From contig JAPLVG010000023.1 of NCBI GenBank assembly GCA_026397235.1, positions 1 through 61,050 of the forward strand: DNA of 61,050 nucleotides, written 5' to 3'. Both the position numbers and the translations under genes were made by a program. The notes below the pieces were generated by a model. That model saw only the letters and a program-made list of their open reading frames with translations, was not told where the DNA came from and searched no databases. Source of the stretch: Candidatus Berkelbacteria bacterium (GTDB lineage: Bacteria > Patescibacteriota > UBA1384 > XYA2-FULL-43-10 > CAINNR01). This document shows, piece after piece, positions 12,550 to 44,888 of this stretch; within the stretch, counting starts at the first letter, position 1, and the number at the start of each line of letters is the position of its first letter.

Positions 12550-12552
12550 AAC

Positions 12553-27602: not shown

Positions 27603-27612
27603 ATAGTCTCTC

Positions 27613-27650
27613 AAAAAAAACTGGCCGAACTAATTAAGCCAGTTTTTTTT
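27613..27650 (+). terminator. Strong hairpin with flanking A8/T8 runs after rplO
   Basis: AAAAAAAACTGGC (27613-27625) / GCCAGTTTTTTTT (27638-27650). Confidence 0.75.
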
Positions 27651-27721
27651 GTACCTTGTTATTGAGTTTAGCGCACAAAAAGCGTACACTTTAGGCATAA
27701 ACTTGTCGATGCAAGATAATT

Positions 27722-28114
27722 ATGACTGATGAAATATTGAGCAAAATTGCAATCTTCCAGAAAAAAGAAATTCGCCGAGTCATTTTCAAAAATGAATGGT
27801 GGTTTGTGGTTGAAGACGTTGTTTTGGCATTGATCAACTCAAATGATCCAAAACAGTATATACAGCGTATGAAACTACGAGATTCCGAGTTAAGAAAAGG
27901 GTGGGTACAAATTGTACAGACCCTCCCGGTAGATACTCTTGGCGGTAAGCAGAAAATGGTTTGCGCCACAGCTGAGGGTTTGTTTCGCATTATTCAGTCT
28001 ATATCCTCGCCCAAAGCAGAACCGTTCAAACGCTGGCTAGCCAAAGTTGGTTACAAGCCTTCTCTCCCTGTCATTGCGAGCCATTTGTTTTTGTGTGAAG
28101 GCGCGGCAATCTAA
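27722..28114 (+). pseudogene. Bro-N-domain (antirepressor/DinD-like) gene, C-terminally truncated by the GIY-YIG element
   Basis: IAIFQKKEIRRVIFKNEWWFVVEDVVLAL...GGKQKMVCATAEGLFRII...AEPFKRWLAKV resembles Bro-N; the last ~20 codons (KPSLPVIASHLFLCEGAAI*) read into the GTCATTGCGAG repeat. Confidence 0.6.
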
Positions 28115-28441
28115 TAAATGAAATTAAAACGATATTATGTCTATTTGATGGTGAATCCTGCAAACTCTGTAATCTATGCCGGAGTCACAAACAATTTAAT
28201 TCGACGTGTGTTTGAACACAAGTGTAAGTTTATTGAGGGATTTACCAAAAAATACAATACAACAAAAGTAGTATATTGGGAGTGTTTTGATGATGTGAAA
28301 TCAGCCATAAATCGCGAGAAACAAATTAAATCAGGTTCCAGGCAAAAGAAAATTGATTTGATAATAAAACATAATCCCAAATTTAATGATTTGTACGGGG
28401 ATCTTTTGTAAGATTGCTTCGTCGTTCCTTCTCGCAATGAC
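28070..28441 (+). mobile_element. GTCAT...ATGAC hairpin element carrying a GIY-YIG ORF in its apical loop (filled copy)
   Basis: Outer arms GTCATTGCGAG (28070-28080) / CTCGCAATGAC (28431-28441); inner arms GGCAATCT (~28106-28113) / AGATTGC (28411-28417). The ORF lies exactly between the inner arms; an empty copy is at 56452-56555. Confidence 0.7.
28118..28411 (+). CDS. Small GIY-YIG nuclease-family protein
   Basis: 97 aa; YYVYLMV...VIYAGVTNNLIRRVFEHK...REKQIK matches the GIY-(x10)-YIG, R, E pattern. Confidence 0.85.
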   Translation: MKLKRYYVYLMVNPANSVIYAGVTNNLIRRVFEHKCKFIEGFTKKYNTTKVVYWECFDDVKSAINREKQIKSGSRQKKIDLIIKHNPKFNDLYGDLL

Positions 28442-28443
28442 GG

Positions 28444-28566
28444 AACCACGCAAAGGCCGGTGGGAATATTGCCGGTGGGGCGAGAAAAAATCTGGAAAAA
28501 CGGCTAGGCAGATCTGTCATCTCAAAACAAAATTATTTACCAAAGAAGAATAAATCAATTGAATAA
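28444..28566 (+). pseudogene. Possible orphan C-terminal fragment of the disrupted Bro-N/DinD-like gene
   Basis: Frame gives NHAKAGGNIAGGARKNLEKRLGRSVISKQNYLPKKNKSIE*, which I recall as typical of the C-terminus of this family; no start codon. Confidence 0.3.
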
Positions 28567-28570
28567 TCTT

Positions 28571-29305
28571 ATGAAAAACATTTTTTTAAAATCAATTTTG
28601 GGTGTCTTACTGTTTGTAGCATTTGTCGTGCTGGCTTTAGTTGCAATCTCCGGCGACAAAAAAGCAAAAGCTGTCGATGTTTGTTGGCAAAAAAACAATG
28701 GGCGCTACTCTTTTGGTGACTCAAACAAGGACTACGAAACAAAGTCATTGTGCCAATCAAACTATGTCTTGTACATGGAAATCGTAAATGGCACTGGTCC
28801 TCAATGCGTATCTGATCTTACCCAAAATGGAACATTTTCTGGCAGAGGGCAGACGTTCAGCACCAAGGAACAATGCAGAGCCTCTTTGCTTGCAACTTAC
28901 AATATGTCGGAATCCCGACCAACCTCGACTTCAAATGCCCCAACCTGCAATTATTCAAATGAATCAGCAAGTTGGAGGAGTAATTTACAAACAAAAATTA
29001 CCGCTTTGTATGCAGAGCTTTTAAAAAGAACTACCAACTCAAATGATTTTGCATATTGGCAGTCGGCGATGCCTTTTCGCAGTTGTGGCCAAACAATTGA
29101 CGAAACAAGCATTCGAGCATTTATTCAGACATCCGAAGAGTACAAGAATCTTCAAGCCGCGAGTACAACTGTTCAACCAGCTATTACCAACCAAAGTACC
29201 GAAGTTCAACTTGTAACCAAAACCGAAGCTCCAAAAACTGGTTTTCTTAACTATATTAAATCTATTCCTTCTCGCATCGCCAACTTTTTTAAGAGATTAT
29301 TTTAA
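28571..29305 (+). CDS. Secreted/membrane-anchored Cys-repeat protein with DUF4214-like C-terminal segment
   Basis: ATG at 28571 (ORF track TTG at 28559); N-terminal hydrophobic segment; two Cys-bounded ~28-aa repeats; LYAELLKRTTNSNDFAYWQS...IRAFIQTSEEY resembles DUF4214. Confidence 0.55.
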   Translation: MKNIFLKSILGVLLFVAFVVLALVAISGDKKAKAVDVCWQKNNGRYSFGDSNKDYETKSLCQSNYVLYMEIVNGTGPQCVSDLTQNGTFSGRGQTFSTKEQCRASLLATYNMSESRPTSTSNAPTCNYSNESASWRSNLQTKITALYAELLKRTTNSNDFAYWQSAMPFRSCGQTIDETSIRAFIQTSEEYKNLQAASTTVQPAITNQSTEVQLVTKTEAPKTGFLNYIKSIPSRIANFFKRLF

Positions 29306-29341
29306 TAACTTATGAAAAATATTTTTCTAACATCAAATGTA

Positions 29342-29409
29342 ACAAAAACACGTGAATAGCACCAGAAAACAGTAATCTATTCACTACTTATTGACAAAAA
29401 CACGTGAAT
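29342..29409 (+). promoter_or_regulatory. Two identical 16-nt direct repeats 52 nt apart
   Basis: ACAAAAACACGTGAAT at 29342-29357 and 29394-29409 (contains the CACGTG palindrome). Confidence 0.6.
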
Positions 29410-29487
29410 GTAGGCATTTTGTTAAACCGAGTGTATTATCATTTTCACCTTCTGTGAGGGCTAAGGCACTCTAGTATGTGGCAATTA

Positions 29488-29556
29488 TGCATAGTTTCAT
29501 GATATTTTGCATAGTTTATATAAATACTTGCATAGTTTAGCAAATAATGCTAAGAT
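29488..29556 (+). promoter_or_regulatory. Three TGCATAGTTT direct repeats overlapping a putative promoter of the HTH-ATPase gene
   Basis: TGCATAGTTT at 29488, 29508, 29529 (20-21-nt period); TTGCAT (29528-29533), 17-nt spacer, TAAGAT (29551-29556). Confidence 0.6.
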
Positions 29557-29574
29557 ATTGTAAGAGGAAATTAA

Positions 29575-30294
29575 ATGGAAGAAAAATTATTAACAATTGC
29601 TGAGGCAGCCGAAATACTCGGCGTTTCAATTGACACGCTCCGTCGCTGGGATAGTAGTGGGAAATTAGTTCCGATTAAAAAAGATGGCGGCGTACATCGG
29701 TTTTACCGAGAAAAAGATCTTGAAATATTTTCAAGTGATATTGTTGAACTTGCTCATGATTGGGCGAGAGATGGTTCAGAATTGCCTTCTATTTTCTACT
29801 GCGGCAATAGTGCAGTTTTTCAAGCCAGATTGTCAAAACTAGAGCATATCTTAATGAATCAACCGGGTTTCGAGAGGTTATTTTCGGTTATTATTGCCAT
29901 TGCCGGCGAGATCGGAAATAATTCTTTTGATCACAATCTGGGAAAGTGGCCGGATATACCGGGTATCTTTTTTGGATATGATATTAATAAAAAGCAAATT
30001 GTTCTTGCTGATCGTGGACTTGGTATTTTGGAGACACTTCGTCAAGTACGACCCAGCCTAAAAAATCATACCGAAGCTTTGATGGTGGCTTTTACTGAGA
30101 TTCTGTCTGGTCGTTCTCCAGAAAAGCGCGGAAATGGCTTAAAGTTCGTTCGAGAAGTTACAACAACTCAGCCAATTGACCTGTTTTTTGAAAGTGGCGA
30201 CGGTGAAGTTCGCATCAAGGCCCCAGATAAGGAGTTTCGTCTGACGCGCGGCCAAGAAATACTTCGCGGTTGCTTCGTCATAATTCAATTTTAA
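29575..30294 (+). CDS. MerR/excisionase-type HTH fused to a GHKL (histidine-kinase-like) ATPase domain
   Basis: 239 aa; LTIAEAAEILGVSIDTLRRWDSSGKL (HTH); N-box EIGNNSFDHN, G1 DRGLGI, G2 GNGLKF. Confidence 0.8.
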   Translation: MEEKLLTIAEAAEILGVSIDTLRRWDSSGKLVPIKKDGGVHRFYREKDLEIFSSDIVELAHDWARDGSELPSIFYCGNSAVFQARLSKLEHILMNQPGFERLFSVIIAIAGEIGNNSFDHNLGKWPDIPGIFFGYDINKKQIVLADRGLGILETLRQVRPSLKNHTEALMVAFTEILSGRSPEKRGNGLKFVREVTTTQPIDLFFESGDGEVRIKAPDKEFRLTRGQEILRGCFVIIQF

Positions 30295-30328
30295 AATTAG
30301 TTATAAAATAATAACGAAGGACAAATCT

Positions 30329-30619
30329 ATGCGTATTGAATTAAATAAATTTGGCACAACGCTTATTTCGCGTCAAGCAGGGTCTGAGGCTTTTAAGGCT
30401 TTTCAGTCAACATTGCAAGACATGAAGCCGGGTGAAAATCTTGAAATTGATTTTTCCGGTGTTTTAACATTTTCTCCATCTTGGGGAGATGAATTTGTGA
30501 GTCCTTTGTTTGATCAACTTGGAGACAACTTGGTCTTGTTAGCGAGCGACAATATGTCAGTTCAAGCAACATTAAAGCTATTGCAGGAAATCAAAAAACA
30601 ATCTTTTGTTATTCACTGA
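30329..30619 (+). CDS. STAS-like (DUF4325-type) small protein
   Basis: 96 aa; LEIDFSGVLTFSPSWGDEFVSPL matches my recollection of the DUF4325 STAS-like core. Confidence 0.65.
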   Translation: MRIELNKFGTTLISRQAGSEAFKAFQSTLQDMKPGENLEIDFSGVLTFSPSWGDEFVSPLFDQLGDNLVLLASDNMSVQATLKLLQEIKKQSFVIH

Positions 30620-30822
30620 TAATGATAAATAATAGAAACTTTCCGCTCCACGAATTTTTAATGCGGCGCTTCGCCAATCAATTCCTGCTTTCCGCGAACG
30701 CGGTGTCTGGAGAATAGCCAGTAACTATAACAAGATACAATAGTTTCGCCGAAGGCGAACACAGGGCGTTAAAAGCTCTGCTTATAAAATGAAAATTACA
30801 AAATAATTAACGTGGAATAATT

Positions 30823-31362
30823 ATGAAAATTACTTACTTTGTTCATGGCACAACAACTGACAATGAAAAGCACATTTCTTCCGGTTGGAAAGATGTAGAG
30901 CTTTCTGACCTTGGAATTCAACAATCAAAAGACTTGAAAAGTCAGGTAGATGTTAAGAAGTTCGATGTAGTTTTCTGTTCCGATTTAAAACGAGCGGTTG
31001 ATTCGACTAAGCTAACCTTTGAAGGAGTTGTACCAATTAAAATCGATCCACGATTACGTGAATGTAATTATGGCGACTTTAATGCTAACCCATCAGAAAT
31101 AGTTGAGCCAATGCAGGAAGAGAATATTGAAAAACCATTTCCAAATGGCGAAAGTTATGAAGATGTTAAAAAACGCATTAGTGAATTTCTGGAAGACATC
31201 AAAAAAGAGTATGGTAACAAACACATAGCAATTGTTGCTCACAAGGCTTCACAGCTAGCGCTGGATGTTATCATTAAAGGTATGACTTGGGACGAAGCCT
31301 TTGCCACAGATTGGCGTAAAGTTGGGAAATGGCAACCCGGTTGGGAATACGAGGTGAAATGA
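30823..31362 (+). CDS. Histidine phosphatase (phosphoglycerate-mutase-like) family protein
   Basis: 179 aa; ITYFVHGTTTDNE (RHG motif with V in place of R), DLKRA, VAHKASQ. Confidence 0.8.
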   Translation: MKITYFVHGTTTDNEKHISSGWKDVELSDLGIQQSKDLKSQVDVKKFDVVFCSDLKRAVDSTKLTFEGVVPIKIDPRLRECNYGDFNANPSEIVEPMQEENIEKPFPNGESYEDVKKRISEFLEDIKKEYGNKHIAIVAHKASQLALDVIIKGMTWDEAFATDWRKVGKWQPGWEYEVK

Positions 31363-31790
31363 TGGAAATTGTAATTGTCGACAATCCAAACCAATTAGAC
31401 ATCTTGTCGGACAAGACCGCGAATTTTGGTGAATTAAACTTTAAATTTTCACCAAAGTATTTAGCTGAACTAAAATCGCTTGTAAATAAATCACTGCAGT
31501 ACATTGCAACTATCGATGGAAATTTTGCTGGATATTTGGCGGCAAAAGAATCCGATATTTGGCCAGATAGTTTTCAGATTGTTGAATTATTTGTCGACCC
31601 ATCAGCCCAAAGAAAAGGGGTGGCATCTTCGTTGCTAGGAAAATTATTCACCGATGCCCATTGTCAGCTTGTTGTCGAAACTGAAAAAGAAAATCTACCT
31701 GCGATAACACTGTATAAAAAGCATGGTTTTGAAGAAGTCGAAAATGAAAATTGGGATGACATAACCTTGGTGAGAAATGACAATAAATAA
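31359..31790 (+). CDS. GNAT-family N-acetyltransferase
   Basis: ATG at 31359 overlaps the upstream stop (ATGA); VDPSAQRKGVASSLLGKL (motif A), LYKKHGFEEV. Confidence 0.8.
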   Translation: MMEIVIVDNPNQLDILSDKTANFGELNFKFSPKYLAELKSLVNKSLQYIATIDGNFAGYLAAKESDIWPDSFQIVELFVDPSAQRKGVASSLLGKLFTDAHCQLVVETEKENLPAITLYKKHGFEEVENENWDDITLVRNDNK

Positions 31791-32178
31791 AGCCGGTGCA
31801 ATTGTTAGAAAAATAGAAAACGGCGAAGTATATATTTTGCTTTTGCATTTGATTAAACACGACTTTTGGTCGTTCCCAAAAGGGCATATTGAAGAAGGTG
31901 AATCCGCAGAAGACACTGCAAAGCGCGAAATTCTTGAGGAAACAGGGCTTGTAATTAATATCACGAAACCGCTCGGAATCGCGAAGTATAAAGATATTGA
32001 TGGCAATGAAGTTAACTTAAATCTTTTCTTGGCCGATATTGAAAGTGGTGAGTTAGTTGAAGAAGAAGGCCACGAGTTAGTTTGGCTAACAGTTGATGAA
32101 GCAACAGAAAAACTAACCTACCCCGAACTCCGCGAATTTCTTTCTGATAAAAAATACGAAATAATTAACCTGGAATAA
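31777..32178 (+). CDS. NUDIX hydrolase
   Basis: 133 aa; Nudix box GHIEEGESAEDTAKREILEETGL. Confidence 0.9.
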   Translation: MTINKAGAIVRKIENGEVYILLLHLIKHDFWSFPKGHIEEGESAEDTAKREILEETGLVINITKPLGIAKYKDIDGNEVNLNLFLADIESGELVEEEGHELVWLTVDEATEKLTYPELREFLSDKKYEIINLE

Positions 32179-32180
32179 TT

Positions 32181-33080
32181 ATGCCAATTTTTAAAATCAA
32201 ACAAAATGCAGTTAATCAGTTAATGCTTGATAAAAATTATTTTAACAATGAATTCGAACTTAGGGATTTTTTTGCCGCCAATCTTGAACAGTTGCTAGGA
32301 TTAAGATTTTTAGAATCAGAATACCCAACTATAGACGGAAGAATAGATACTTTAGCCATAGACGAAACAAACTCCCCAGTTATTATTGAATACAAATGGG
32401 GACAAGATAATGCCATTTTTGTGCAGGGCTTGTTCTATCTAGACTGGTTGAAGAAAAATAAAAGACATTTTGATTTATTAGTAGCTAAAAAACTTGGTGA
32501 AGACGTAACTGTTAATTGGGCTAGTCCTCGAGTTATATTAATTGCATAAGGCTTTGATAACAGGACTATTACTGCAGTTCAGCAAGTTGATAGTGTTGAA
32601 CTTATAAAATATTCGCCTTATGAACAAGAAATTATCTACCTGGAAAATGTTTATGTGCCAAATAAGTCTAACCGCATTAAACAAAGTAATGATACAGATA
32701 GTTCGACAACTGAGGGGGCTGAGTTAGAAGAAACACATGATATTAGCTATCACTTGACTCGTCATAATTCGAATGCTGTCATAACCAAAGAGTTTCATAT
32801 GCTTAGAGAAAAAATACAGAATCTCCCTGGAGTAGAAGAAATAGTGAATTTTAAGACCGGAATTACTTATAGAACGACGAAAAGTTTTGCTAGGTTTGAA
32901 TTTGGAAGGACATTCATGAACGTCTTGGTTCGAGAACCGAAGTATAATGATCCTACACACTTGGTTCGTGATATCACTTCGCATATGTGGGGGTACAAAG
33001 GTAAAATCAAAGTTACATCTTCTGAAAATACTGACGCTGTTTTTGATATAATCAAACAGTCGTATGAAGAAACCTTGTGA
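32181..33080 (+). pseudogene. PD-(D/E)xK nuclease-like + DUF5655-like protein interrupted by one in-frame TAA
   Basis: ORFs 32181-32549 and 32655-33080 are in the same frame, and the frame is open between them except TAA at 32547-32549; paralogue of 33192-34115 (IDTLAIDETNSPVIIEYK vs IDSVALDESTNSVVLIEYK). Confidence 0.6.
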
Positions 33081-33191
33081 TGCTAACAGCTAATTTTACT
33101 AAGGTTAAATAACTGTTTACAGAAAAAGAAAACTCTCGCAATCTCAAGAGCGAAGTGCTATACTTTAGGCGTAAAATTAAGTGAAATAATT

Positions 33192-34115
33192 ATGGCAATT
33201 TTTAAAATTAATGATCAAAAGCTTGAAGCGATTTCTGAAAAGAAAATTGATTTAGAGCGCGATATTCAGAAACTCACCGAGCAAAACCTTGAAAATGTTT
33301 TTGGATTAAAATTTGTATGTGGTGCAAGCAACCAAGAATTTTGTGTTCGCGCAAATGAACAAGATTTCTACATTGATTCTGTAGCCCTAGATGAATCGAC
33401 TAACTCTGTTGTTCTTATTGAATACAAAAAGGATCGCAGTTTTTCAGTTATTGACCAGGGTTTTGCTTATCTATCTGCGATGCTGAACAATAAAGCTGAA
33501 TTTGTTTTGGAAATAAATGAGCGGCTTAAAAAAAATCTATCAAAAAAAGATATCGATTGGGAGCAATCTAGAATTATTTTTATTTCAAACGAATTCACAA
33601 ATTATCAAAAGAACGCCATCAACTTTAAGGATCTGCCAATGTTTTTGTACGAAGTAAAAATATATGACAACCTTATTGATTACAATCCAATCAAACCCTT
33701 CAAAACCAGTGAATCAATTAACAAATTTATCAAAGATAAAAAAGTCAGGGAAGTAGTAAATGAAGTCAAAGTTTATTCGATTGAAGATCATTTATCGAAA
33801 TCATTACCTGAAATTGTCGAAATCTATAACACGCTTAGCCAAAAAATTCATTCACTTGATACCAGAATTTTAGAGAAACCAGTAAGGGGCTATATCGGTT
33901 TTAAAATTCGCTACCATAACTTCTGTTCTCTCGCGGTACAAAAAAATAAAATCGGGGTTTATTTACGCGCCCAGAAAATATCTGATGGAAATAAACTTCT
34001 TAAAAGGATACCAAGTCAGAGTTCTTTGTGGCGATGTGATATAACTTCGCTTGATCAAATTGATGAGGTGTTTTTACTTATCCAACAATCATATAATCAG
34101 GCACCAGATAAATAA
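33192..34115 (+). CDS. PD-(D/E)xK nuclease-like N-domain + DUF5655-like C-domain protein (intact paralogue)
   Basis: 307 aa; D...E-x-K signature in YIDSVALDESTNSVVLIEYK; C-terminal YIGFKIRYHNFCSLAV... Confidence 0.65.
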   Translation: MAIFKINDQKLEAISEKKIDLERDIQKLTEQNLENVFGLKFVCGASNQEFCVRANEQDFYIDSVALDESTNSVVLIEYKKDRSFSVIDQGFAYLSAMLNNKAEFVLEINERLKKNLSKKDIDWEQSRIIFISNEFTNYQKNAINFKDLPMFLYEVKIYDNLIDYNPIKPFKTSESINKFIKDKKVREVVNEVKVYSIEDHLSKSLPEIVEIYNTLSQKIHSLDTRILEKPVRGYIGFKIRYHNFCSLAVQKNKIGVYLRAQKISDGNKLLKRIPSQSSLWRCDITSLDQIDEVFLLIQQSYNQAPDK

Positions 34116-34166
34116 AACAATAATGTCCGAAGCATTTTCACGAGTAGTAATTTGATAAATAAATAT

Positions 34167-35303
34167 ATGGCTAGAATATCCTCAATCAAAAATCTTAAGA
34201 AAGCAAGAAAAGCAAAAAATGATGAGTTCTATACTCAGTACATTGATATTCAAAAAGAGATTGAAAAGTATCTTGAATATAATCCTGATACTTTTCGCGA
34301 GAAGGTAGTTTATTGTAACTGTGATGACCCGTTTGAAAGTAATTTCTTCCGTTATTTTGTGCTAAATTTTAATAAGCTTGGATTAAAACAGCTCATCACA
34401 ACGAGCTACAAACCATCGCCTGTTGCCAATACGCAGCTAGGATTATTTGGTGATGACAAAACACTTGCAAATGAAAAAGGACGTCCAAAAATAACTGCAA
34501 ACAAATTTATTATCAACGAAGTGCGCGACATAGACGAAGATGGTGAGTTCAATTTGGAAGATGTTGCCAAGCAACTGAAGGTAAATAAGCACAATGAATG
34601 GGCGCCACTGGATGATGATGGCGATTTTCGTAGTGATGAGTGTGTCGAACTACTCAAGCAATCTGATATAGTAGTAACCAACCCGCCATTCAGCTTGTTT
34701 CGTGAATATGTTAAGCAGCTTTTCGATTATAATAAAAAGTTTTTGATCATCGGCAATATTAATTGCCTAACTTATAGAGAAATATTCCAAAAAATTAAAG
34801 AAAATAAAGCATGGCTTGGTAATGGGATGGGGAGGTGGATTTCTGGGTTTATTGTTCCTGAATCCTACGAATTGTATGGGTCGGAAGCTCGAATAGATGA
34901 AAATGGAGATAGAATTGTCGCCACTAACAATTGTTTGTGGCTTACTAATCTTGATCACGGACGACGCCATCAACCGTTACCGCTTATGACAACGGCTGAA
35001 AATTTAAAATATAGCAAACATAAAGAAATCAAAGGGAAAGAGTCGTATGATAAATACGATAATTACAACGCAATAGAGATACCTTTTACCGATGCTATAC
35101 CAAGTGATTATAAAGGCGCAATGGGTGTGCCAGTTACTTTTCTTGATAAATATAATCCTGATCAGTTTGAAATTTTAGGAAATTCTAATGTGCGAGGAGA
35201 CCGAGAACATTTAATGAATAATATTAAAAGCGCATCGGGTTGCACCTATATAAACGGTAAGCCACAATTTGCTCGTATTTTAATAAAACATAGGGAAAAA
35301 TAA
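34167..35303 (+). CDS. DNA N6-adenine methyltransferase (EcoRI-methylase-like family, by recollection)
   Basis: KNDEFYTQY...VYCNCDDPFESNFFRYF N-terminal signature and catalytic VVTNPPFSLF (NPPF); ATG 34167 preferred over ORF-track TTG 34152. Confidence 0.8.
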   Translation: MARISSIKNLKKARKAKNDEFYTQYIDIQKEIEKYLEYNPDTFREKVVYCNCDDPFESNFFRYFVLNFNKLGLKQLITTSYKPSPVANTQLGLFGDDKTLANEKGRPKITANKFIINEVRDIDEDGEFNLEDVAKQLKVNKHNEWAPLDDDGDFRSDECVELLKQSDIVVTNPPFSLFREYVKQLFDYNKKFLIIGNINCLTYREIFQKIKENKAWLGNGMGRWISGFIVPESYELYGSEARIDENGDRIVATNNCLWLTNLDHGRRHQPLPLMTTAENLKYSKHKEIKGKESYDKYDNYNAIEIPFTDAIPSDYKGAMGVPVTFLDKYNPDQFEILGNSNVRGDREHLMNNIKSASGCTYINGKPQFARILIKHREK

Positions 35304-35304
35304 T

Positions 35305-36474
35305 ATGAAAACAATTTTAACAACTACCACAACCGTAAAAGAAATCTGCGATGGATTTGTCTATAACGAGCTTGAAGGCAAGGGATTATTTGGCTTGTCG
35401 GGAAAGCTGACCATTCAACCGGAATATCAACGAAACTATATTTATGCTTCGGATGGCGGAAAAAGAGAAGCAGCTGTCATCGCATCTGTTTTGAAAGAAT
35501 ATCCCATTGGTTTGATCTATTTTAACAAGGTTAGCGATGATAAATTTGAAGTTTTGGACGGTCAGCAACGTATTACGAGCCTTGGCCGATTTATCACGGA
35601 CAAATTTGCAATAATCGATCAAAATGGCATGCCTCAGAATTTTAGCGGCATGGCCAAAGATAAGCAAACCAAGATTTTGGAAACAAAACTAACTATTTAT
35701 GAATGCGGGGGCAAAGAAAGCGAAATAAAAGAGTGGTTCAAGACGATTAATATTGCCGGTGTCCCGCTTAATAACCAAGAGCTCTTGAACGCGGTTTATT
35801 CGGGACCATTTGTGACGCGAGCCAAAGAAGAGTTTAGCAACAGTCAGAATGCCAATATCCAAAAATGGAGCGCGTATGTTAGCGGTAGCGCAAATCGGCA
35901 AGAGTTTTTAGAGAGAGCGCTAGACTGGTCTAGTAAAGGTGAGATCGGTGAATATATGAGTAGCCATCGATTTGATGATAATATTACCGAGCTAAAGAGC
36001 TATTTCAATTTAGTAATTGATTGGGTTTCTAGCGTTTTTAGTGATGTTGAAAGCGAGATGCGAGGTTTGCCATGGGGCCATTTCTATGAACAATATCACA
36101 AAAATTCATACAACCCCGGGAATGTGTCTGACAAGGTCCATAAGTTTTATAGCGATCCTTATATAAAAAGTCGCAAAGGCATTTTCGAATTTATCCTCGG
36201 GGGAGAAGTTGACACAAAATTACTTGAGATTAGAGTGTTTGACGAGGCGACTAAAAGATTGGTCTATTCCAAACAGACAGAAGCTGCAAAAGCTAAAGGC
36301 GTATCAAATTGCTCGTACTGTGCAATCGGTCACGATGCTAATAGAGACAAAATCTGGAGTTTAGACGAAATGGATGCCGATCATGTCGAAGCTTGGAGCA
36401 AGGGCGGCTCAACAGATATGATAAATTGTGAAATGTTGTGCAAAACACACAACCGAGCAAAAGGTAATCGATAG
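35305..36474 (+). CDS. DUF262 (ParB/GmrSD-N-like) + C-terminal HNH nuclease protein
   Basis: 389 aa; IQPEYQRNY, LDGQQRITSLG (DUF262); CSYC...DADHVEAWSKGG...NCEMLCKTHNRAKGN (HNH); starts 1 nt after the methyltransferase stop. Confidence 0.85.
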   Translation: MKTILTTTTTVKEICDGFVYNELEGKGLFGLSGKLTIQPEYQRNYIYASDGGKREAAVIASVLKEYPIGLIYFNKVSDDKFEVLDGQQRITSLGRFITDKFAIIDQNGMPQNFSGMAKDKQTKILETKLTIYECGGKESEIKEWFKTINIAGVPLNNQELLNAVYSGPFVTRAKEEFSNSQNANIQKWSAYVSGSANRQEFLERALDWSSKGEIGEYMSSHRFDDNITELKSYFNLVIDWVSSVFSDVESEMRGLPWGHFYEQYHKNSYNPGNVSDKVHKFYSDPYIKSRKGIFEFILGGEVDTKLLEIRVFDEATKRLVYSKQTEAAKAKGVSNCSYCAIGHDANRDKIWSLDEMDADHVEAWSKGGSTDMINCEMLCKTHNRAKGNR

Positions 36475-36479
36475 CTCAC

Positions 36480-37175
36480 ATGGAATATCAGATTATTCTA
36501 AAACACAAGGATAAAACTTATCGTGTCTCAAAATTGGTAGCGGCGGGTGACGGTTCTCTGTACTGGTATTTTCCAAATTCTCAAAAATATTATGTTCGTG
36601 CTGTCAAAGTTGTCAAATGGAGACCTGGAAAATCTAAAATAAAATTGGAGGGGAGACACAGGTTTTGCTCCGATCCATATGTCAGCTTTCATCCCGGTAA
36701 AGGAATAATTCACGCGAAAGGTAAAAGCAAGCTCGGCCAAAGCATTAATCTTGTTGAGGATTCTGAGCAAATAAGCTTTGATAAATTGGCTTTAGCATTG
36801 TCTCACCAAGTTATATTCTCATTCGTCGTGCCTAGCAAGCTCAATGTATTAGATGAGTACAACAAAATAGTTTGTTTAGTATCTGATTTGGTATTTAAAT
36901 CTGACAAAGAAGAAATCGATACAAGTTTAAATTTTGAATTTTTTGTCCATAACTCTGGCGGAGTTGTTGATATTGATGACTTGAAAGCTCGTACTAATAG
37001 AAACATAATTGCCGTGAAAGAAATTCAGCTCAGAAATTGTTACTTTACTATAACCTGTGTGGTGAGTTCGATTAGGATTGTCAACTCAAAAGATTTGGTC
37101 TGTGAAATCCCAAGAGGGGCAAAAATTGAACCTGTGTTTTTTGCTCTTAGAAAAAACCCAAAAAATAATGATTGA
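36480..37175 (+). CDS. Hypothetical protein
   Basis: 231 aa, starts 5 nt after the DUF262-HNH stop; no family recognised. Confidence 0.55.
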   Translation: MEYQIILKHKDKTYRVSKLVAAGDGSLYWYFPNSQKYYVRAVKVVKWRPGKSKIKLEGRHRFCSDPYVSFHPGKGIIHAKGKSKLGQSINLVEDSEQISFDKLALALSHQVIFSFVVPSKLNVLDEYNKIVCLVSDLVFKSDKEEIDTSLNFEFFVHNSGGVVDIDDLKARTNRNIIAVKEIQLRNCYFTITCVVSSIRIVNSKDLVCEIPRGAKIEPVFFALRKNPKNND

Positions 37176-37244
37176 CAAAACCATAACGTTTAATAGAAGA
37201 TGAAGCTGTTATAAATTGCAGGATCTAAGATCAATATTTGCCAA

Positions 37245-38252
37245 ATGGACAAAACGCCTAAAAACCAACTAAGCATTTTGATACGTTTTAGTTTTTGTGA
37301 TAGTAACGCTCAAGCAATAGACCTTTATACCAGAAATGCCTGTGTGCTAGCTCAAGCTGAGATAATAACATTTATATTAGGCGGACTCTGCCCCGGTGAG
37401 CCATTTGAAATTTTGACTTTACCACCTCAAAGTGGCTCATTCAAAGACTTAACAGTTGTAAAATTGTTAAATAATAACACAGGCTGCGTTGCAGCATTAA
37501 GCGTTTTGCTTATGGCGCTCCTGTTCAGCAGCCAGTTGAAAGTTAATAATACAACTTCAGACTTGAATGTTCTGGAGATTGTTGAAAAATGCAAAAACTA
37601 TGGAGTGAGTGAGGAGCTCACTGAAAAAGTGAAAAATATATGCAGCTCTTACTACCCTAAAAAACAGAAAAACATTTTCTATGAATCTGTAATAGCTGAC
37701 GAAAGTGTGACGAGCATCAAGCCAACGATAACAGAAGACCACGAAACTTTTGAAAAAGAAATTAATAGAAGTGATTTTCGAGAATTTATTGAAGAAATAC
37801 CGAAAGAAAAAGAATACTTGAAAACGGATTTATTGGGTCATATTCAGTTATCGCAGCCATTTATTGAAAAGCAGCAACAATATGGCAGGGGTGTTGCCTG
37901 GAAAGGGATGTATTTTGGCGAGGATGTAGTAGATGATCGAGGTGAAATAATTATTGAGGATGGCGAGAACATATTTTTCTACATGCAAGATGATGAATAT
38001 AAGGATCAGATATTAAAGCAAGAGGTCTCGTTTACTAGCGGTGATAATATCGGAGTCATTTTTGATGTTAATAGATATTATGATTACATTGAAAGTAGAT
38101 ATGGAAAGCCAAGATTGTATGTAAAAAAAGTGACATCTCATAATGATAACCTAGTTGAGCATAAGAAAGAATTGGAGATTAAAAGACAAGTCGTAAAGAG
38201 AGAAAAGCAAAATAAAAATCAAAAGTCGCTATTTGAGAATATTGAAACATAG
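37245..38252 (+). CDS. Hypothetical protein (one hydrophobic segment, acidic C-terminal half)
   Basis: 335 aa; no family recognised. Confidence 0.55.
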   Translation: MDKTPKNQLSILIRFSFCDSNAQAIDLYTRNACVLAQAEIITFILGGLCPGEPFEILTLPPQSGSFKDLTVVKLLNNNTGCVAALSVLLMALLFSSQLKVNNTTSDLNVLEIVEKCKNYGVSEELTEKVKNICSSYYPKKQKNIFYESVIADESVTSIKPTITEDHETFEKEINRSDFREFIEEIPKEKEYLKTDLLGHIQLSQPFIEKQQQYGRGVAWKGMYFGEDVVDDRGEIIIEDGENIFFYMQDDEYKDQILKQEVSFTSGDNIGVIFDVNRYYDYIESRYGKPRLYVKKVTSHNDNLVEHKKELEIKRQVVKREKQNKNQKSLFENIET

Positions 38253-38500
38253 CGTTAATACGGCAACAAAATTCTTAATAAAGATAGGGATCCAGCGCCA
38301 GTTGTAAATAATTTGGACAATAATTATGCAAAAACTAATTCAAGAATTTTTGAGAGTTAGGGATTTGCCCTACAGAATTCCACTTTCGTACGAAGATATC
38401 GAACATTATCAAAAAATTATTGTCGTCCTAGTCGAAACCAATCTGATTATGAAAGAAATCGACGAGGTTGTCGTTTTGTAAATAATGGTTACAGTTCTAT

Positions 38501-38529
38501 TGACAACTATATTTACATATATTATACTC
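38501..38529 (+). promoter_or_regulatory. Consensus sigma70-like promoter for the DUF2188 gene / TA module
   Basis: TTGACA (38501-38506), 17-nt spacer, TATACT (38524-38529); AAAGGAG SD before ATG 38556. Confidence 0.65.
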
Positions 38530-38555
38530 AGGGTAATTAACAAAGGAGTGTAATT

Positions 38556-38789
38556 ATGTCCGGTAAACAAATCTGGGTTTCGCCGGCTGATGACGGCTGG
38601 CGCGTTCACAAACCAGGAACAGTGAAAGATTCTGCTCGTACTGATACTAAAGCAGAAGCACTAGAAATCGCTGAAAGGATTGCAAGGAATCAAAACTTAG
38701 ACACAAAGGTTCAGCGAGCCGATGGTAAATTGTCAGCAGAGGGGAATACATACCCTCGTTCGCGAGACAAGTTTCCGCCACGAGGTTAG
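38556..38789 (+). CDS. DUF2188-family small protein
   Basis: 77 aa; WVSPADDGWRVHKPG...TKAEALEIAERIARNQ...RADGKL pattern. Confidence 0.7.
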   Translation: MSGKQIWVSPADDGWRVHKPGTVKDSARTDTKAEALEIAERIARNQNLDTKVQRADGKLSAEGNTYPRSRDKFPPRG

Positions 38790-38829
38790 TCAGTGAAGTG
38801 AATAATATAAATTAGCAGGAGGGGCTATC

Positions 38830-39585
38830 ATGAATTATTTTAAGAAATTGTTATTGGAGAAAAAAATTTCGCACGAGAAGCTTGCGGATATTTTTGGTAT
38901 TTCTCGTCCGACAGCCGCTAAAATCGCAAACGGTGATAAAGAAATGACCATAACAGAGCTGAGAAGGTTGGCAGAGGTGCTTGGAATTTCTGTTGACGAA
39001 GTGCTGGGTGAGAAGACGTCCGAAATTGTTTTAGAGTGTCCAAAGGAGAAAGCCAAGCCAACAGAACGAATCAGTGTTCCAGCAGAAGATGCTGAAAAAT
39101 TTAAGAATGTTCTGCTTTACATTACTCAAAAAATTGGAGCTCTTCCTAATGTTGGTCAGACTGTTCTGTATAAAATTTTATATTTCTGCGACTTTGATTA
39201 TTATGAGAAATTTGAAGAGCAACTTACTGGTGCACGGTATATCAGAAATCATTATGGGCCGACTCCAGTTGCGTTTGCAAAAATCGTTAAAACTATGATA
39301 ACTGCTGGAGAAATTGAAGAAGTAAAAACCAAATATTTCAATAAGGAACAAACCAAATATATCCCTGTGATCGAGCCGAACTTATCTGTATTGTCAGGGC
39401 AAGAGCTTAAACACATTGATGAGGAAATTGAGAAATTGGGAGGAATGACTGCTACTGAATTGTCGAACTTGTCCCATAAAGATGTACCCTGGATCGTCAC
39501 AAAGGAAGGGGATGAAATTCCTTACGAAACTGCTTTTTACAGAACACCTGACACCTCGGTAAGGGATTATGATGATAGTTTATAG
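38830..39585 (+). CDS. XRE-HTH + Panacea (DUF4065) domain antitoxin-like protein
   Basis: 251 aa; HTH ISHEKLADIFGISRPTAAKIANG; LYKILYFCDFDYYEKFEEQLTGARYIRNHYGPTP resembles DUF4065/SocA. Confidence 0.75.
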   Translation: MNYFKKLLLEKKISHEKLADIFGISRPTAAKIANGDKEMTITELRRLAEVLGISVDEVLGEKTSEIVLECPKEKAKPTERISVPAEDAEKFKNVLLYITQKIGALPNVGQTVLYKILYFCDFDYYEKFEEQLTGARYIRNHYGPTPVAFAKIVKTMITAGEIEEVKTKYFNKEQTKYIPVIEPNLSVLSGQELKHIDEEIEKLGGMTATELSNLSHKDVPWIVTKEGDEIPYETAFYRTPDTSVRDYDDSL

Positions 39586-39952
39586 CAAGCATCCAAGATT
39601 CGAAAAGCAGTTGAAAAAACTTCTAAAGAAGTATAGAACCCTGGAAGACGATTTGTTGATTGCCAAAAAAGCTGTAATTGAGCTATCACATGTTAATAAA
39701 ATCGACAACAGATCAGTTGAATTAGTTCCAGGATTTGATCATCAAGAAATTCAAATTTTTAAGATTAAGAAATTTGCCTGTAAAGCACTCGTTGGCAAAG
39801 GTGTTAGGAGTGGAATCCGAATTGTTTATGCATATTTTCCCGAACAAAATCATGTTAAATATTTAGAAATCTATTACAAAGAGAAAGATAACACGGATAT
39901 GGATTATGATTTTGTCAAAAATTATGTAGCAGAAATTATGAAGAGAACATGA
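39569..39952 (+). CDS. RelE/ParE-superfamily-like toxin partner
   Basis: 127 aa; overlaps the upstream gene by 17 nt; GIRIVYAYFPEQNHVKYLEIYYKEKD resembles the RelE/ParE-fold C-terminal strands. Confidence 0.6.
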   Translation: MMIVYSKHPRFEKQLKKLLKKYRTLEDDLLIAKKAVIELSHVNKIDNRSVELVPGFDHQEIQIFKIKKFACKALVGKGVRSGIRIVYAYFPEQNHVKYLEIYYKEKDNTDMDYDFVKNYVAEIMKRT

Positions 39953-39997
39953 CCATGCAATTCGAGTCCATATTACAATAACTATTATATAGAAAAT

Positions 39998-40042
39998 ATG
40001 AGCGAATATTACAAAGCAAATCGTGATTCATTTATTAGATAA
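39998..40042 (+). pseudogene. 14-codon remnant of the 5' end of a PD-(D/E)xK (Cas4-like) gene
   Basis: MSEYYKANRDSFIR*; the first 8 codons match the intact gene at 43741 (MSEYYKANR). Confidence 0.5.
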
Positions 40043-40090
40043 TATTATGAAAGATTATAAGATTTGGACAGGTAGAGAAAGATTGATTTC

Positions 40091-40687
40091 TTGCAAACCA
40101 ACCAAAAAATAATAGCATTCAATTTTATGGAAAAGCTCTCCTGCAATCTTGATAATACTAACTGGGAGAATATTCGGGTTGGGGCTCGGAAGTATATAGC
40201 CATAATGCAGATGGTTAAGAATACGAATGTTCGAACAGACGAAAGTTTTCGTAGAGCGTTTAATGGATTTTATCGTATAAGGCAGAGATCAAAAGAGTTT
40301 TACGATTTCCTTTATGAATATCTGGAAAGAAATAAAGAAATTAATACTTCTTTCAAACAAACATTATATTCTTTCTATGAGAAGTTTCAGCGTCTTGAGC
40401 CTTCATTTTCGAGTAAGATCGTAGCGACAATCAATCCAAACTTTCCTGTTTGGGATTCGGAAGTTCTGGCTAGGTTTGGGAAGAGAACACTTGGACATAA
40501 TTTAAACAAGGATATTAGACTGAAGGAAATGGTTAAAATATACAGTGAAATATCTGATTGGTATGCCGAATTTTTAGAAACTGACCAAGCAAAAGCAATG
40601 ATTGGATTGTTTGACCAAAAGATCGGCAAGCTAGAAATTACCGACATTAAAAAAATTGATTTAATTCTCTGGCAAACTAGGTCATGA
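40091..40687 (+). CDS. Hypothetical protein (start uncertain: TTG 40091 or ATG 40127)
   Basis: 198 aa; no family recognised with confidence. Confidence 0.5.
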   Translation: MQTNQKIIAFNFMEKLSCNLDNTNWENIRVGARKYIAIMQMVKNTNVRTDESFRRAFNGFYRIRQRSKEFYDFLYEYLERNKEINTSFKQTLYSFYEKFQRLEPSFSSKIVATINPNFPVWDSEVLARFGKRTLGHNLNKDIRLKEMVKIYSEISDWYAEFLETDQAKAMIGLFDQKIGKLEITDIKKIDLILWQTRS

Positions 40688-40782
40688 ATTCTGAATTAAT
40701 CAAAAAGAAAAGAAATACTATGTATAAACTTTCACCATCAGACTTTGCTTACTTGTACAAAGATTGTAAGCTTTGCTATTAG
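40684..40782 (+). pseudogene. N-terminal fragment of a second Cas4-like/PD-(D/E)xK-family gene ending at an in-frame TAG
   Basis: MNSELIKKKRNTMYKLSPSDFAYLYKDCKLCY* ; the S..F......C..C(F/Y) pattern parallels ISRSKLENFMNCSRCFY of 43741-44514. Confidence 0.4.
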
Positions 40783-40820
40783 TTAAAAATTAAACATGAC
40801 ATCACCCGCCAAAGGATTCT

Positions 40821-40865
40821 ATTCCACTTCTATGCGGAGTTTACCCTGTGGGAAGTATAGTAGTG
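40821..40865. repeat. Left copy of a ~45-52-bp inverted repeat
   Basis: The reverse complement CACTACTATACTTCCCACAGGGTAAACTCCGCATAG... matches 42728-42763 at 33/36 positions. Confidence 0.85.
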
Positions 40866-40936
40866 AAATACTGTGTCGGAGACACAAAAAGCTGGTATGG
40901 GTGTTTATGTAAATATCAATATATGACTTATAACTT

Positions 40937-41671
40937 ATGAAACCACAATATGATCTAGAGAAAATTAAGCTTGGAATTGATGAAGGAACGTGGAAGCGCG
41001 CAGTTGCTTTGTACGAATCTAATGCGGTGGAAAACTTCCGGGTACAATTTGGTGATTTTTTCGCGAAAGTAATTGGCGGCGAACCATATAATGTTTTTGT
41101 TTCATCGAAAGTTTATGACGAGGGCAATTGTAATTGTTATCTTGGGCGAAGTGAAATTTTGTGCAAACACATGGTTGCAGTCGCTATTTACGCTGTTAAA
41201 GGTGGACGCAAATTAACCAAAGAGGAAAAGGAATTGAGCCATCAGGTTGTGTTTAGCGGATTAGTTGGTGAACTAACAGAATTAGAATTAACCAATGTTA
41301 AAACAAATATCACAGCGTCACTTAAATATATTAAGTCTTACCATGGTCCCTCTCGGAGTTGGTTTCAATATCAAAATTCACTTACCGAGGGCTGTAATCG
41401 CTTAGCAAAAATTGTTTCTGGATTGCCTATATGCCCGCACACTTCGAGCATTCTAGTTGACTTGTTATTGCGGGCTGACAAGAAATTAACAGCTAGCGGC
41501 ATAGATGATTCAGACGGAATAGTTGGGGCATTCATTGAGGCGGTAGTGTTGTTACTCATGGATTTTTCAAAGTTAGATAAGAATTGTATAAAAACATTTT
41601 CGAAGTTAGTCGGCAAGGAAACCTGTTTTGGCTGGGAGTCCCCACTTTTAGAAATATATGATTCTTTATAA
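40937..41671 (+). CDS. SWIM zinc-finger protein
   Basis: 244 aa; CNCYLGRSEILCKHMVAVAIYA (CxC...CxH SWIM signature). Confidence 0.75.
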   Translation: MKPQYDLEKIKLGIDEGTWKRAVALYESNAVENFRVQFGDFFAKVIGGEPYNVFVSSKVYDEGNCNCYLGRSEILCKHMVAVAIYAVKGGRKLTKEEKELSHQVVFSGLVGELTELELTNVKTNITASLKYIKSYHGPSRSWFQYQNSLTEGCNRLAKIVSGLPICPHTSSILVDLLLRADKKLTASGIDDSDGIVGAFIEAVVLLLMDFSKLDKNCIKTFSKLVGKETCFGWESPLLEIYDSL

Positions 41672-41690
41672 TGGTTGAGATTTGTAATAG

Positions 41691-42441
41691 ATGAAAAGAA
41701 AAAAAATAACACAGAAAGAGCGGCGCACGATTGTTGAAAGTGTTGTCGGTAATGTGCCATGGGAGCAATTTACCCCCGGAATTTATAATAATTGTGATCG
41801 TTGGTGTGAGCGGTGCAGCAAAACTGAGAAATGTTATTTATTTTTTGAAGAGAAAAAAGAAGAGAATCGACGAACAAAAAGAAAAAAAGCCAAGAGATAC
41901 CGCTGGATCACTTAAAAAAGTTGGCGAATCACTTGGGCAAGTAAAGGATTTGATTCAGAAAATTTGTGATGCTGAAGGCATTGATGTTTCCATGACGCCA
42001 GAAGAGGAAGCTGAATATGAAAGAAGAGAGAAATTAACCGATCCGCACAATGATCCGATCGCTATCAGAGCCAGTAGATTATCAAAGTCAATATATAAAT
42101 GGTTGGATTCTGTACCGTCTCTAGACATGGTGAAGTATCAAGAAGCCTACGACCAAGTTTCTTGGCATTGGTCGCTGATTGGAGTAAAAACTGCGATGGC
42201 AATCCATTGCCAAAAGGAAACAGAAATTGAAGAAGGAAGTTCAAGAAAATTTGCCTTGGATCAACAACAGAAGTACAGCTGGATGGCTTATCGCTCGACC
42301 CAGATTTGCAAAAAAGGTTTTGAATTAATGGATGGCTATGTAAAAGATTCCAGAATAAGGCCCATTATTGATGAGAGTCAGAAATTAATGGGTCTAATCG
42401 ATAAAAAATTGTTGGCAACTGATATAATAATAAAGCAATGA
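41691..42441 (+). pseudogene. Cys-rich/helical protein gene requiring a +1 frame change in an A-rich tract
   Basis: ORF 41691-41915 (CDRWCERCSKTEKC...) and ORF 41731-42441 (+1 frame) overlap; plausible coding sense switches frame between ~41845 and ~41912, where A6, A5 and A7 runs occur. Confidence 0.5.
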
Positions 42442-42555
42442 CAGCGAGAGAATTAATGAAAATTAAAGGGTTCGAATTTGACGGGTTTATACGCTAAGAA
42501 AGAGTTTTAATCTTACGGAATCCCATAACATTAAAAAACTAAACTAGGAAAAAAT

Positions 42556-42717
42556 ATGTCAGATTATTACAAAGCAAATCGAACAAAAAATATCTTTGAT
42601 CCTAAATCGGATCAGGCTTTTAAGATCTCTAGAAGCAAACTGGAAAAATGTATTGTGGTTTGTCAGGTCGGTACGGTTAAATCAGCTTTCACAATTAGTA
42701 GAATAAAAAGAGTATAG
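42556..42717 (+). pseudogene. Truncated 5' copy (~30 codons of homology) of the Cas4-like gene
   Basis: MSDYYKANRTKNIFDPKSDQAFKISRSKLEK... parallels MSEYYKANRTKNLYDPKNDQAFKISRSKLEN of 43741, then diverges and stops at 42715-42717. Confidence 0.6.
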
Positions 42718-42727
42718 AATGATACGC

Positions 42728-42779
42728 CACTACTGTACTACCCACAGGGTAAACTCCGTATAGTAATAATAGATGGAAT
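42728..42779. repeat. Right copy of the inverted repeat
   Basis: CACTACTGTACTACCCACAGGGTAAACTCCGTATAG...GGAAT; partner at 40821-40865. Confidence 0.85.
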
Positions 42780-42883
42780 GCCGTAGCTGTTCCGCTTCTT
42801 ATATGTACTTTTCTATATACAAAACCATTGAAAATAGGTTAGAATAGGTATATAATCGGTTGAATTAATATATTGGGAGAATC

Positions 42884-43078
42884 ATGACTGCAAAACAAGC
42901 AGCACAACTTATTTCAAACATCAAAGCGGCAAGAGAAACTATTTCAGAGATGACGCCCGCACAGAGAAAAAACCTCGAGAGATCGTGGGATGTTGAGCAT
43001 GCCTATTATTCCAGTTCTTTAGAGGGCAGCAATATAAGTAGAAAAGAATTTAATAAAATTGCAGAAGATGTAAAATAA
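42884..43078 (+). CDS. Fic-inhibitory antitoxin-like small protein (class I FicA/VbhA-like)
   Basis: 64 aa; contains S-x-x-x-E-G (YSSSLEGSN), the inhibitory-helix motif; directly upstream of the Fic gene. Confidence 0.6.
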   Translation: MTAKQAAQLISNIKAARETISEMTPAQRKNLERSWDVEHAYYSSSLEGSNISRKEFNKIAEDVK

Positions 43079-43084
43079 AGTCTG

Positions 43085-43738: not shown

Positions 43739-43740
43739 AA

Positions 43741-44514: not shown

Positions 44515-44522
44515 TTATGCCG

Positions 44523-44549
44523 CACTACTATACTTCGAAGTGTAGTAGT
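44523..44549. repeat. Near-perfect palindrome sharing the CACTACTATACTTC word with the inverted repeats
   Basis: CACTACTATACTTC|GAAGTGTAGTAGT; the first 14 nt are identical to the reverse complement of 40852-40865. Confidence 0.8.
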
Positions 44550-44566
44550 AGAATATAGTTTAGAAA

Positions 44567-44848: not shown

Positions 44849-44888
44849 TCTGACACTTCGATGCTTCGAATTATAGAAATGGAAAAAC

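Follow-up and report, generated by a model that had tools for sequence, protein, structure and literature searches.

GmrSD, BrxU, and SspE are among the modification-dependent enzymes from which the DUF262 domain is chiefly known. In REBASE, a "DUF262 domain-containing protein" of Bifidobacterium animalis is listed as the Type II restriction endonuclease (REase) Ban8145ORF124P, which has a partner methyltransferase (MTase) for RTCAGG (PMC13091528, 2026). The present work concerns a pair of adjacent genes, encoding an EcoRI-family MTase and a DUF262-HNH nuclease, that lies within a compact block of six open reading frames (ORFs) at positions 32181-38252 of contig JAPLVG010000023.1 from Candidatus Berkelbacteria (assembly GCA_026397235.1). 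The whole stretch of DNA that was analyzed, 61,050 nucleotides (nt) in length, is referred to as the window. A preliminary description of this DNA had proposed that the block could be a composite restriction-modification (R-M) and type IV system, or else a novel multi-gene defense system. The evidence assembled here points to a different conclusion: the block is very probably a mosaic of independent, co-directional defense modules arranged around a BanLI-kind Type II R-M pair, rather than one system.

Among characterized systems, the one that appears closest in architecture is BanLI, a Type II (IIS-like) system from B. animalis subsp. lactis. Its MTase gene precedes its REase gene (PMC3990576). 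M.BanLI, a protein of 41.7 kDa that its authors aligned with M.EcoRI, produces RTC(m6A)GG on one strand only, and the mass of R.BanLI is 43.5 kDa (PMC3990576). In E. coli, the cloned pair lowered P1vir plating by ~10-fold, and plasmid DNA methylated by M.BanLI transformed 1.8-fold better (PMC3990576). A 'lost second methylase' was proposed by the same authors (PMC3990576). Beyond this limited set of BanLI genetics, no biochemical characterization of such a DUF262-HNH enzyme was found in the searchable literature.

Families and motifs of the central pair

An ORF map of the region from 28 to 42 kb places all six ORFs of the block on the + strand. Two genes matching the PADLOC family PDC-S18 lie upstream of the pair, and two others, called here ORF231 and ORF335, lie downstream of it. 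The map reproduces exactly the gene order, the coordinates, and the in-frame stop of the preliminary description, as well as the spacing: 1 nt from the MTase stop to the start codon of the REase, 5 nt from the REase to ORF231, and 69 nt from ORF231 to ORF335. The MTase gene (34152-35303, + strand) begins with TTG and encodes 383 amino acids (aa; ~44 kDa), and the REase gene (35305-36474, + strand) begins with ATG and encodes 389 aa (44.15 kDa).

Window proteins were scanned against Pfam, PADLOC, NCBIfam, and PHROGs. The MTase matches the Pfam EcoRI_methylase family (PF13651) with an E of 8e-131 over profile positions 1-344 of 345, matches PADLOC MTase_II with an E of 3e-116, and carries an NPPF motif at residues 177-180. 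These features mark it as a predicted EcoRI-family N6-adenine DNA methyltransferase that would form the modification half of an R-M pair. The nuclease matches the PADLOC REase_II profile PDLC03418 almost from end to end (positions 17-371 of 372; E 3.9e-82, 274 bits). Pfam recognizes GmrSD_N (DUF262, with a ParB-like NTPase fold, PF03235; E 2.7e-20) and HNH (PF01844; E 6e-7) in the same protein, and at its C-terminus the Pfam scan gave no match to DUF1524, with the PF01844 HNH domain found there instead. The PADLOC profiles for NsnA, PD-T4-2_A, and HEC-05/06 score at most 89 bits and cover the DUF262 region only.

Conserved residues agree with these assignments. The DGQQR motif at nuclease residues 85-89 is invariant among homologues, as are D359-H360, N374, and H382-N383; Cys residues are also kept, and the HNH active site is intact. 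The DUF262-HNH protein can hence be regarded as the predicted restriction half of the pair. The DGQQR motif is essential for GTP hydrolysis in SspE, and because it is intact here, regulation of the nuclease by nucleoside triphosphates (NTPs) is plausible by analogy. Neither the REase nor the MTase gave a match when its sequence was searched against the PDB, and a profile search yielded only a marginal match to BrxU (7P9K; E 0.77). The domain calls made earlier, namely DUF5655 with PD-(D/E)xK, an NPPF MTase, and DUF262 with HNH, were all confirmed by the profile scans, and the family matches likewise support the earlier view of the block as a defense cluster with an R-M core.

Site avoidance within the 61-kb window gave no indication of a recognition sequence. 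Among 4- and 6-bp palindromes, none shows clear depletion, the lowest being GATC with an observed-to-expected ratio of 0.77, and the sites with an AATT core that were checked (GAATTC, CAATTG, and AATT) likewise show no depletion. The same is true of RTCAGG, which is observed 34 times in the window against an expectation of 33-44.

Distribution of the MTase-REase pair

A tblastn search of plasmids with the nuclease recovered relatives with 57-67% identity in Moraxella, Enterococcus, Pediococcus, Arthrobacter, Rhodococcus, Phocaeicola, and other genera. The total is 105 matching plasmid records, of which the weaker have lower identity. In four of four annotated plasmids (Moraxella, Enterococcus, Arthrobacter, and Pediococcus), an "adenine-specific methyltransferase EcoRI family protein" is encoded directly upstream of the nuclease, and the genes downstream of the pair differ among them. 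Two of the plasmids are only 9 kb in length, and the MTase-REase pair is essentially their cargo. When one genome per species was scanned, relatives of the nuclease were found in at least 528 species.

Gene associations were evaluated in the best 80 nuclease loci (70-81% identity), which were searched with all six window proteins. These loci span the Candidate Phyla Radiation (CPR), Bacteroidota, Chloroflexota, Proteobacteria, Firmicutes, and one archaeon. An MTase gene lies upstream of the nuclease gene on the same strand in 75 of them, and in most it is directly adjacent. In the remaining five, the contig ends less than 300 bp upstream of the nuclease, and the evaluable result is 75/75. Homologues of PDC-S18, ORF231, and ORF335 were found in none of the 80 MTase-REase loci, and when all flanking ORFs were clustered, no additional genuine gene family exceeded 5 of the 80 loci. 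Because the MTase precedes the REase in every evaluable locus and no third gene is conserved, the pairing is the rule for this nuclease family and two genes make it complete. By these comparisons, the MTase and the DUF262-HNH protein are predicted to constitute a self-contained, widespread, and mobile two-gene R-M cassette.

These findings change the picture given by the preliminary description, in which the coupling of an MTase to a DUF262-HNH protein was considered unusual. The same coupling recurs in all evaluable loci, on plasmids, and in a phage, and BanLI has the same architecture. The preliminary description had also proposed looking in other genomes for the quartet of MTase, DUF262-HNH, ORF231, and ORF335, with a lack of co-occurrence to be taken as a chance juxtaposition; no such co-occurrence was seen in the loci compared here. 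The cassette is very widespread across species, plasmids, and one phage, and its nuclease is unusually conserved. Where a DUF262-HNH gene lies beside an EcoRI-family methylase gene, the two should be annotated as a Type II R-M pair; the labels of GmrSD-type Type IV enzyme and of new composite system should both be avoided.

Several additional observations concern relatives of the pair. Flavobacterium phage vB_FspS_laban6-1 (L131, record positions 10219-12581) carries overlapping MTase and DUF262-HNH genes in that order, with a nuclease that is 73% identical, and this two-gene insert is surrounded by tail and structural genes that lie on the other strand. At about 9 of the 75 loci (L021, L024, L025, L030, L036, L042, L074, L080, and L083), 1-3 kb of other genes separate the MTase from the REase. 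The genes inside these pairs include those for an OLD-like ABC ATPase with a coiled-coil protein, RhuM-like proteins, a ParB-like protein with a Dam-type MTase, and Bro-N proteins. This 'guilt-by-embedding', of which BREX, DISARM, and type I R-M provide described cases, appears here in a Type II pair. Among L015-L094, the median pairwise identity is 75% for the nuclease versus 54% for the MTase (minima 65% versus 40%), a comparison that is biased by the choice of loci on nuclease similarity. Such a nuclease, more conserved than its cognate MTase, inverts the pattern that is usual for Type II systems.

Genes that flank the pair

PADLOC includes 145 candidates under the designation "PDC", which were predicted from their embedding in BREX, DISARM, or type I R-M (Payne et al., bioRxiv 10.1101/2024.01.29.577857). 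Two such families, PDC-S18 and PDC-S42, are matched in the block, and a literature search by these two names found nothing. The preliminary description had proposed a PADLOC search and had recognized neither of the two proteins downstream of the pair. The search assigns Type II profiles to the MTase and the REase and matches PDC-S18 upstream. It also matches ORF335 to PDC-S42, and only ORF231 has remained unrecognizable in the profile libraries.

The first PDC-S18 gene (copy 1; 32181-33080, + strand) comprises 32181-32549 (an ORF of 122 aa) plus 32655-33080 in one frame, with a single TAA codon at 32547-32549. The second (copy 2; 33192-34115, + strand) is intact and encodes 307 aa. PADLOC profile PDLC04946 matches the N-terminal part of copy 1 (E 1.6e-42), and PDC-S18 profiles match its C-terminal part. 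Copy 2 matches PDLC04945 over its full length (E 1.2e-83) and Pfam DUF5655 with an E of 9e-9. A C-terminal DUF5655 domain and a weak N-terminal PD-(D/E)xK / NucS_C signal are present in both, and D...ExK...QxxxY motifs are visible when the two are aligned. The earlier designation of these genes as paralogues holds insofar as both belong to PDC-S18, but they share only 27% identity and their best PADLOC profiles differ.

Intact homologues of copy 1 at two other loci (L129 and L130) have Gln at the position of the stop ('LILIAQSYN' versus 'ILIA*GFDN' in the window), which implies a CAA to TAA nonsense change in copy 1. The sequence can be read in either of two ways, with copy 1 as a pseudogene or with the TAA as a sequencing or base-call error. 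Copy 2 is a predicted stand-alone defense candidate of the nuclease type. At 32 metagenome loci, PDC-S18 homologues occur as single copies with no tandem partner, and a two-gene system formed by the two copies was ruled out on this basis. The REase, ORF231, and ORF335 are absent from 32 of 32 of these loci, and the MTase is absent from 31 of 32. Homologues on plasmids carry the plain annotation of DUF5655 protein.

One metagenome contig (L103; Ga0066639_10121689, 1-1754) carries a PDC-S18 gene (60% identity) followed after a 55-nt gap by an EcoRI-family MTase gene (80% identity). This contig of 1.75 kb probably represents a related lineage with the same island rather than independent evidence.

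ORF335 (37245-38252, + strand) encodes 335 aa and matches PDC-S42 (PDLC05016) with an E of 4.1e-16, aligning protein residues 11-331 with profile positions 11-318 of 320. Relatives with 48-68% identity form 48 other protein clusters, and those with named sources come from metagenome-assembled genomes (MAGs) of Patescibacteria/CPR. At other loci, such genes have as neighbors an HpaII R-M system, a Thoeris pair located within a type I R-M operon, or a reverse transcriptase. Neither plasmids nor phages gave a match to ORF335. Its AlphaFold2 (AF2) model has a pLDDT of 80, and a fold search of the PDB with this model gave no match at E<=0.001, the best query-normalized TM-score being ~0.2. Judging from its profile match and neighbors, ORF335 appears to be a distant member of PDC-S42 and a candidate stand-alone gene that is common in Patescibacteria defense islands.

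ORF231 (36480-37175, + strand) encodes 231 aa and has no match in Pfam, PADLOC, NCBIfam, or PHROG. A word-indexed protein search recovered nothing but ORF231 itself, in a Candidatus Berkelbacteria MAG, and a full HMMER scan of 1.84 billion representatives found 36 distant relatives at E<1e-3. These are 166-336 aa in length, except for an outlier of 1022 aa that matches over a short stretch. Within the family, H71 and H78 are invariant, and D24, S26, S69, D94, and H157 are nearly so. The AF2 model is all-beta (pLDDT 91.4, pTM 0.89), and searches of the PDB and BFVD with this fold gave no match at E<=0.001 and a best query-normalized TM-score of ~0.2. A profile hidden Markov model (HMM) of the family detected nothing in the 80 MTase-REase loci.

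The neighborhoods of ORF231 relatives are varied. One distant homologue, P0078 (L011-L013), resides within a type I R-M operon in which the order is hsdM, an AbiJ_NTD4 protein gene, a 149-aa membrane-like ORF, hsdS, P0078, and a DUF4238 gene. By the embedding criterion, this position marks the ORF231 family as a defense candidate. Another relative precedes an overlapping DUF4145 gene, and others lie among hypothetical genes. No partner shared by the homologues was found in an all-against-all BLAST comparison of their neighbors. Two further ideas were pursued and abandoned. A 260-aa gene downstream of the homologue in L095 was considered as a tandem paralogue, and the family HMM gives this no support. 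Membership in PDC-S12 was likewise too thinly based, with 1 of 29 aligned family members matching (E 7e-6) and the others giving no match even at E<=5; those 28, like ORF231, lack a hit to any PADLOC profile. Overall, ORF231 is probably an independent defense-island gene of a rare, all-beta family of ~230 aa. A rare family whose confidently predicted fold is unmatched, and which is seen inside other defense loci, makes a cheap candidate for phage-resistance screening.

Preferred reading and alternatives

The functional core of the block would be a conventional two-gene Type II R-M cassette of the BanLI kind. If these genes are active in their Berkelbacteria host, the EcoRI-family MTase would place N6-methyladenine on the host copies of a short recognition site, as expected from its family, and the DUF262-HNH protein would cut incoming DNA with unmethylated sites through its HNH (beta-beta-alpha-metal) active site. 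The NTPase-like DUF262 domain, together with a middle region specific to the family, might serve DNA recognition, regulation, or both. Three unrelated single-gene modules would flank the pair: PDC-S18 in two divergent copies, the first with a nonsense codon; ORF231; and ORF335 as a PDC-S42 gene. Each of the three might contribute to defense. What was observed in support of this mosaic is the set of gene structures, the family matches, the strict order of MTase before REase, and the lack of co-occurrence of the other genes.

It is extremely unlikely that all six genes, or the quartet from the MTase to ORF335, form one composite multi-gene defense system. The genes are co-directional and tightly spaced (1, 5, and 69 nt), a promoter and terminator scan of 31.5-39 kb produced nothing usefully above shuffled expectation and no convincing terminator within the block, and the order of PDC-S18 before MTase is seen once more in L103. 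Gaps of 5 nt or less, however, separate 12 of the 52 adjacent gene pairs of the window, including unrelated neighbors such as NUDIX and PDC-S18 or Fic and PD-(D/E)xK, and spacing is therefore uninformative about shared function here. In compact CPR genomes, close gene spacing is no evidence for a shared system. The proposed partners do not accompany each other in the 80 MTase-REase loci, in 31 of 32 PDC-S18 loci, or in the ORF231 and ORF335 loci, and small plasmids and a phage carry the pair by itself. The lone L103 contig, given its size and its 60% and 80% identities, probably comes from a related lineage. A looser version, which seems unlikely, gives the R-M pair a lineage-specific accessory in ORF231, for example as a regulator or as an additional effector translated together with the REase, and would make this a three-gene variant. 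It could draw on the 5-nt gap after the REase stop, on a weak Shine-Dalgarno-like AAGG upstream of ORF231, and on the genes that are sometimes embedded in or attached to the cassette elsewhere. The ORF231 family is nevertheless absent from all 80 MTase-REase loci even by profile search, its members reside in unrelated contexts, and the cassette works as two genes elsewhere.

A different objection arises from the nuclease itself, which might be a modification-dependent (Type IV, GmrSD-like) enzyme, leaving the MTase as an orphan, as a decoy, or as an enzyme that, in another sequence context, marks DNA to be cut. The N-terminal DUF262 domain, typical of GmrSD, BrxU, and SspE, with its intact DGQQR motif, and the weaker PADLOC matches to NsnA, PD-T4-2_A, and HEC-05/06 would fit such an enzyme. 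Yet the C-terminus is a canonical HNH domain (PF01844) with no DUF1524 match, the Type II REase profile is the best match by far at full length (against the lower-scoring matches confined to DUF262), and similarity to the solved BrxU structure is marginal. A Type IV nuclease is expected to stand alone, whereas an MTase lies upstream in every evaluable locus, and this strict synteny of overlapping or abutting genes would be self-toxic for an m6A-dependent enzyme. The BanLI data argue in the same direction, given that the methylated plasmid transformed better and the cloned pair restricted unmodified P1. For these reasons, a Type IV assignment is judged very unlikely.

Somewhat better placed, although doubtful, is the joint proposal that the cassette represents a distinct restriction subclass, that ORF231 founds a new single-gene defense family with a fold unseen in the PDB and BFVD, or both. 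In such a subclass, protection may come from a single MTase that methylates an asymmetric site on one strand only, which is what was reported for BanLI, and the NTPase domain with its intact DGQQR motif may provide NTP-dependent switching or two-site communication. The logic of Type III or Type IIL enzymes may in this way operate in a two-gene Type II format. Because a single MTase is present in 75/75 loci, this design would be native to the subclass, rather than the outcome of the loss suggested by the BanLI authors.

Several points weigh against the mosaic with a BanLI-kind pair at its center. The co-occurrence test covers close relatives only, as the 80 loci were picked by REase similarity (at least 70% identity). 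The context samples are small, with 3 independent places for ORF335 and about 7 for ORF231. DUF262 is typical of modification-dependent enzymes, and so the direction of methylation sensitivity is one that we infer. ORF231 starts 5 nt after the REase stop, and a lineage-specific functional link between the two is possible. Lastly, the connection to BanLI rests on architecture, size, and annotation, and not on alignment to M.BanLI or R.BanLI.

The surrounding genomic island

The block is part of an accessory and defense island of ~18 kb (27603-45888) that separates rplO from secY within the ribosomal spc operon, whose genes are normally contiguous. The left flank carries rpoB, followed by rpsE and an L15-like gene that ends at 27602, and secY-adk-map resumes from 45889. 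All island genes are co-directional, and the GC content of the island is 0.367 versus 0.411 in the upstream core genes. Between 27603 and the block, on the same strand, are genes for Bro-N, GIY-YIG, MerR-type helix-turn-helix (HTH), DUF4325, histidine phosphatase, GNAT, and NUDIX proteins. From the end of the block up to 45888, again on the same strand, are genes for DUF2188, HTH-Panacea (overlapping a 127-aa ORF), SWIM, Fic (PDC-S04/SoFic-like), Cas4-like PD-(D/E)xK, and nucleoside hydrolase proteins.

Certain other features of the window can be noted. A gene with HTH (XRE-type) and SocA/Panacea domains at 38830-39585 overlaps by 17 nt the 127-aa ORF at 39569-39952, for which no family match was found. 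The layout of 38830-39952 resembles that of a Panacea-type toxin-antitoxin pair. At the left edge of the island (27722-28411), a 130-aa Bro-N protein covers only the first ~113 of 286 positions of the PDC-S13 profile, and a gene for a 97-aa GIY-YIG protein starts 3 nt after it; the two may be a split or truncated gene. The sole long ORF on the minus strand of the window (50034-51755, 573 aa) coincides with a spike in GC content of 0.47-0.51 versus a background of ~0.38.

Comparison with known systems

The GmrSD, BrxU, and SspE enzymes resemble the nuclease described here in combining, in one polypeptide, an N-terminal DUF262 domain with DGQQR and a C-terminal His-Me-finger nuclease. They differ in having DUF1524 where the nuclease of the window has a PF01844 HNH domain, and in being larger (587-771 aa for BrxU and SspE). 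They also act on modified DNA, either with no cognate MTase or in dependence on phosphorothioate modification genes, whereas the present nuclease family is always paired with an MTase and has the weak BrxU profile match as its sole sequence link to a solved structure. The MTase shares a full-length match and the NPPF catalytic motif with the EcoRI MTase family (PF13651), but unlike in the EcoRI system, the partner nuclease is not an EcoRI-like PD-(D/E)xK enzyme.

The flanking genes can be compared with PADLOC families in the same manner. The PDC-S18 genes agree with their family in the full-length profile match and in being single genes in or next to other defense systems, and they differ in flanking a Type II system and in occurring as two divergent copies, one of which is broken. 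ORF335 similarly matches PDC-S42 over its full length as a single gene in or near other defense systems, but the match is distant and the gene lies beside a Type II system.

The likeness to BanLI extends to several features. Both pairs have the MTase gene before the REase gene, a single EcoRI-like N6-adenine MTase of similar mass (41.7 kDa in BanLI and ~44 kDa here), and a DUF262-annotated REase (43.5 kDa in BanLI and 44.15 kDa here). An integrase gene lies upstream of BanLI, which sets the two loci apart, and the RTCAGG site of BanLI cannot be assumed for the pair in the window. Taken together, the pair can be counted as a further member of an established Type II R-M family, with candidate defense genes on both sides in an otherwise ordinary island.

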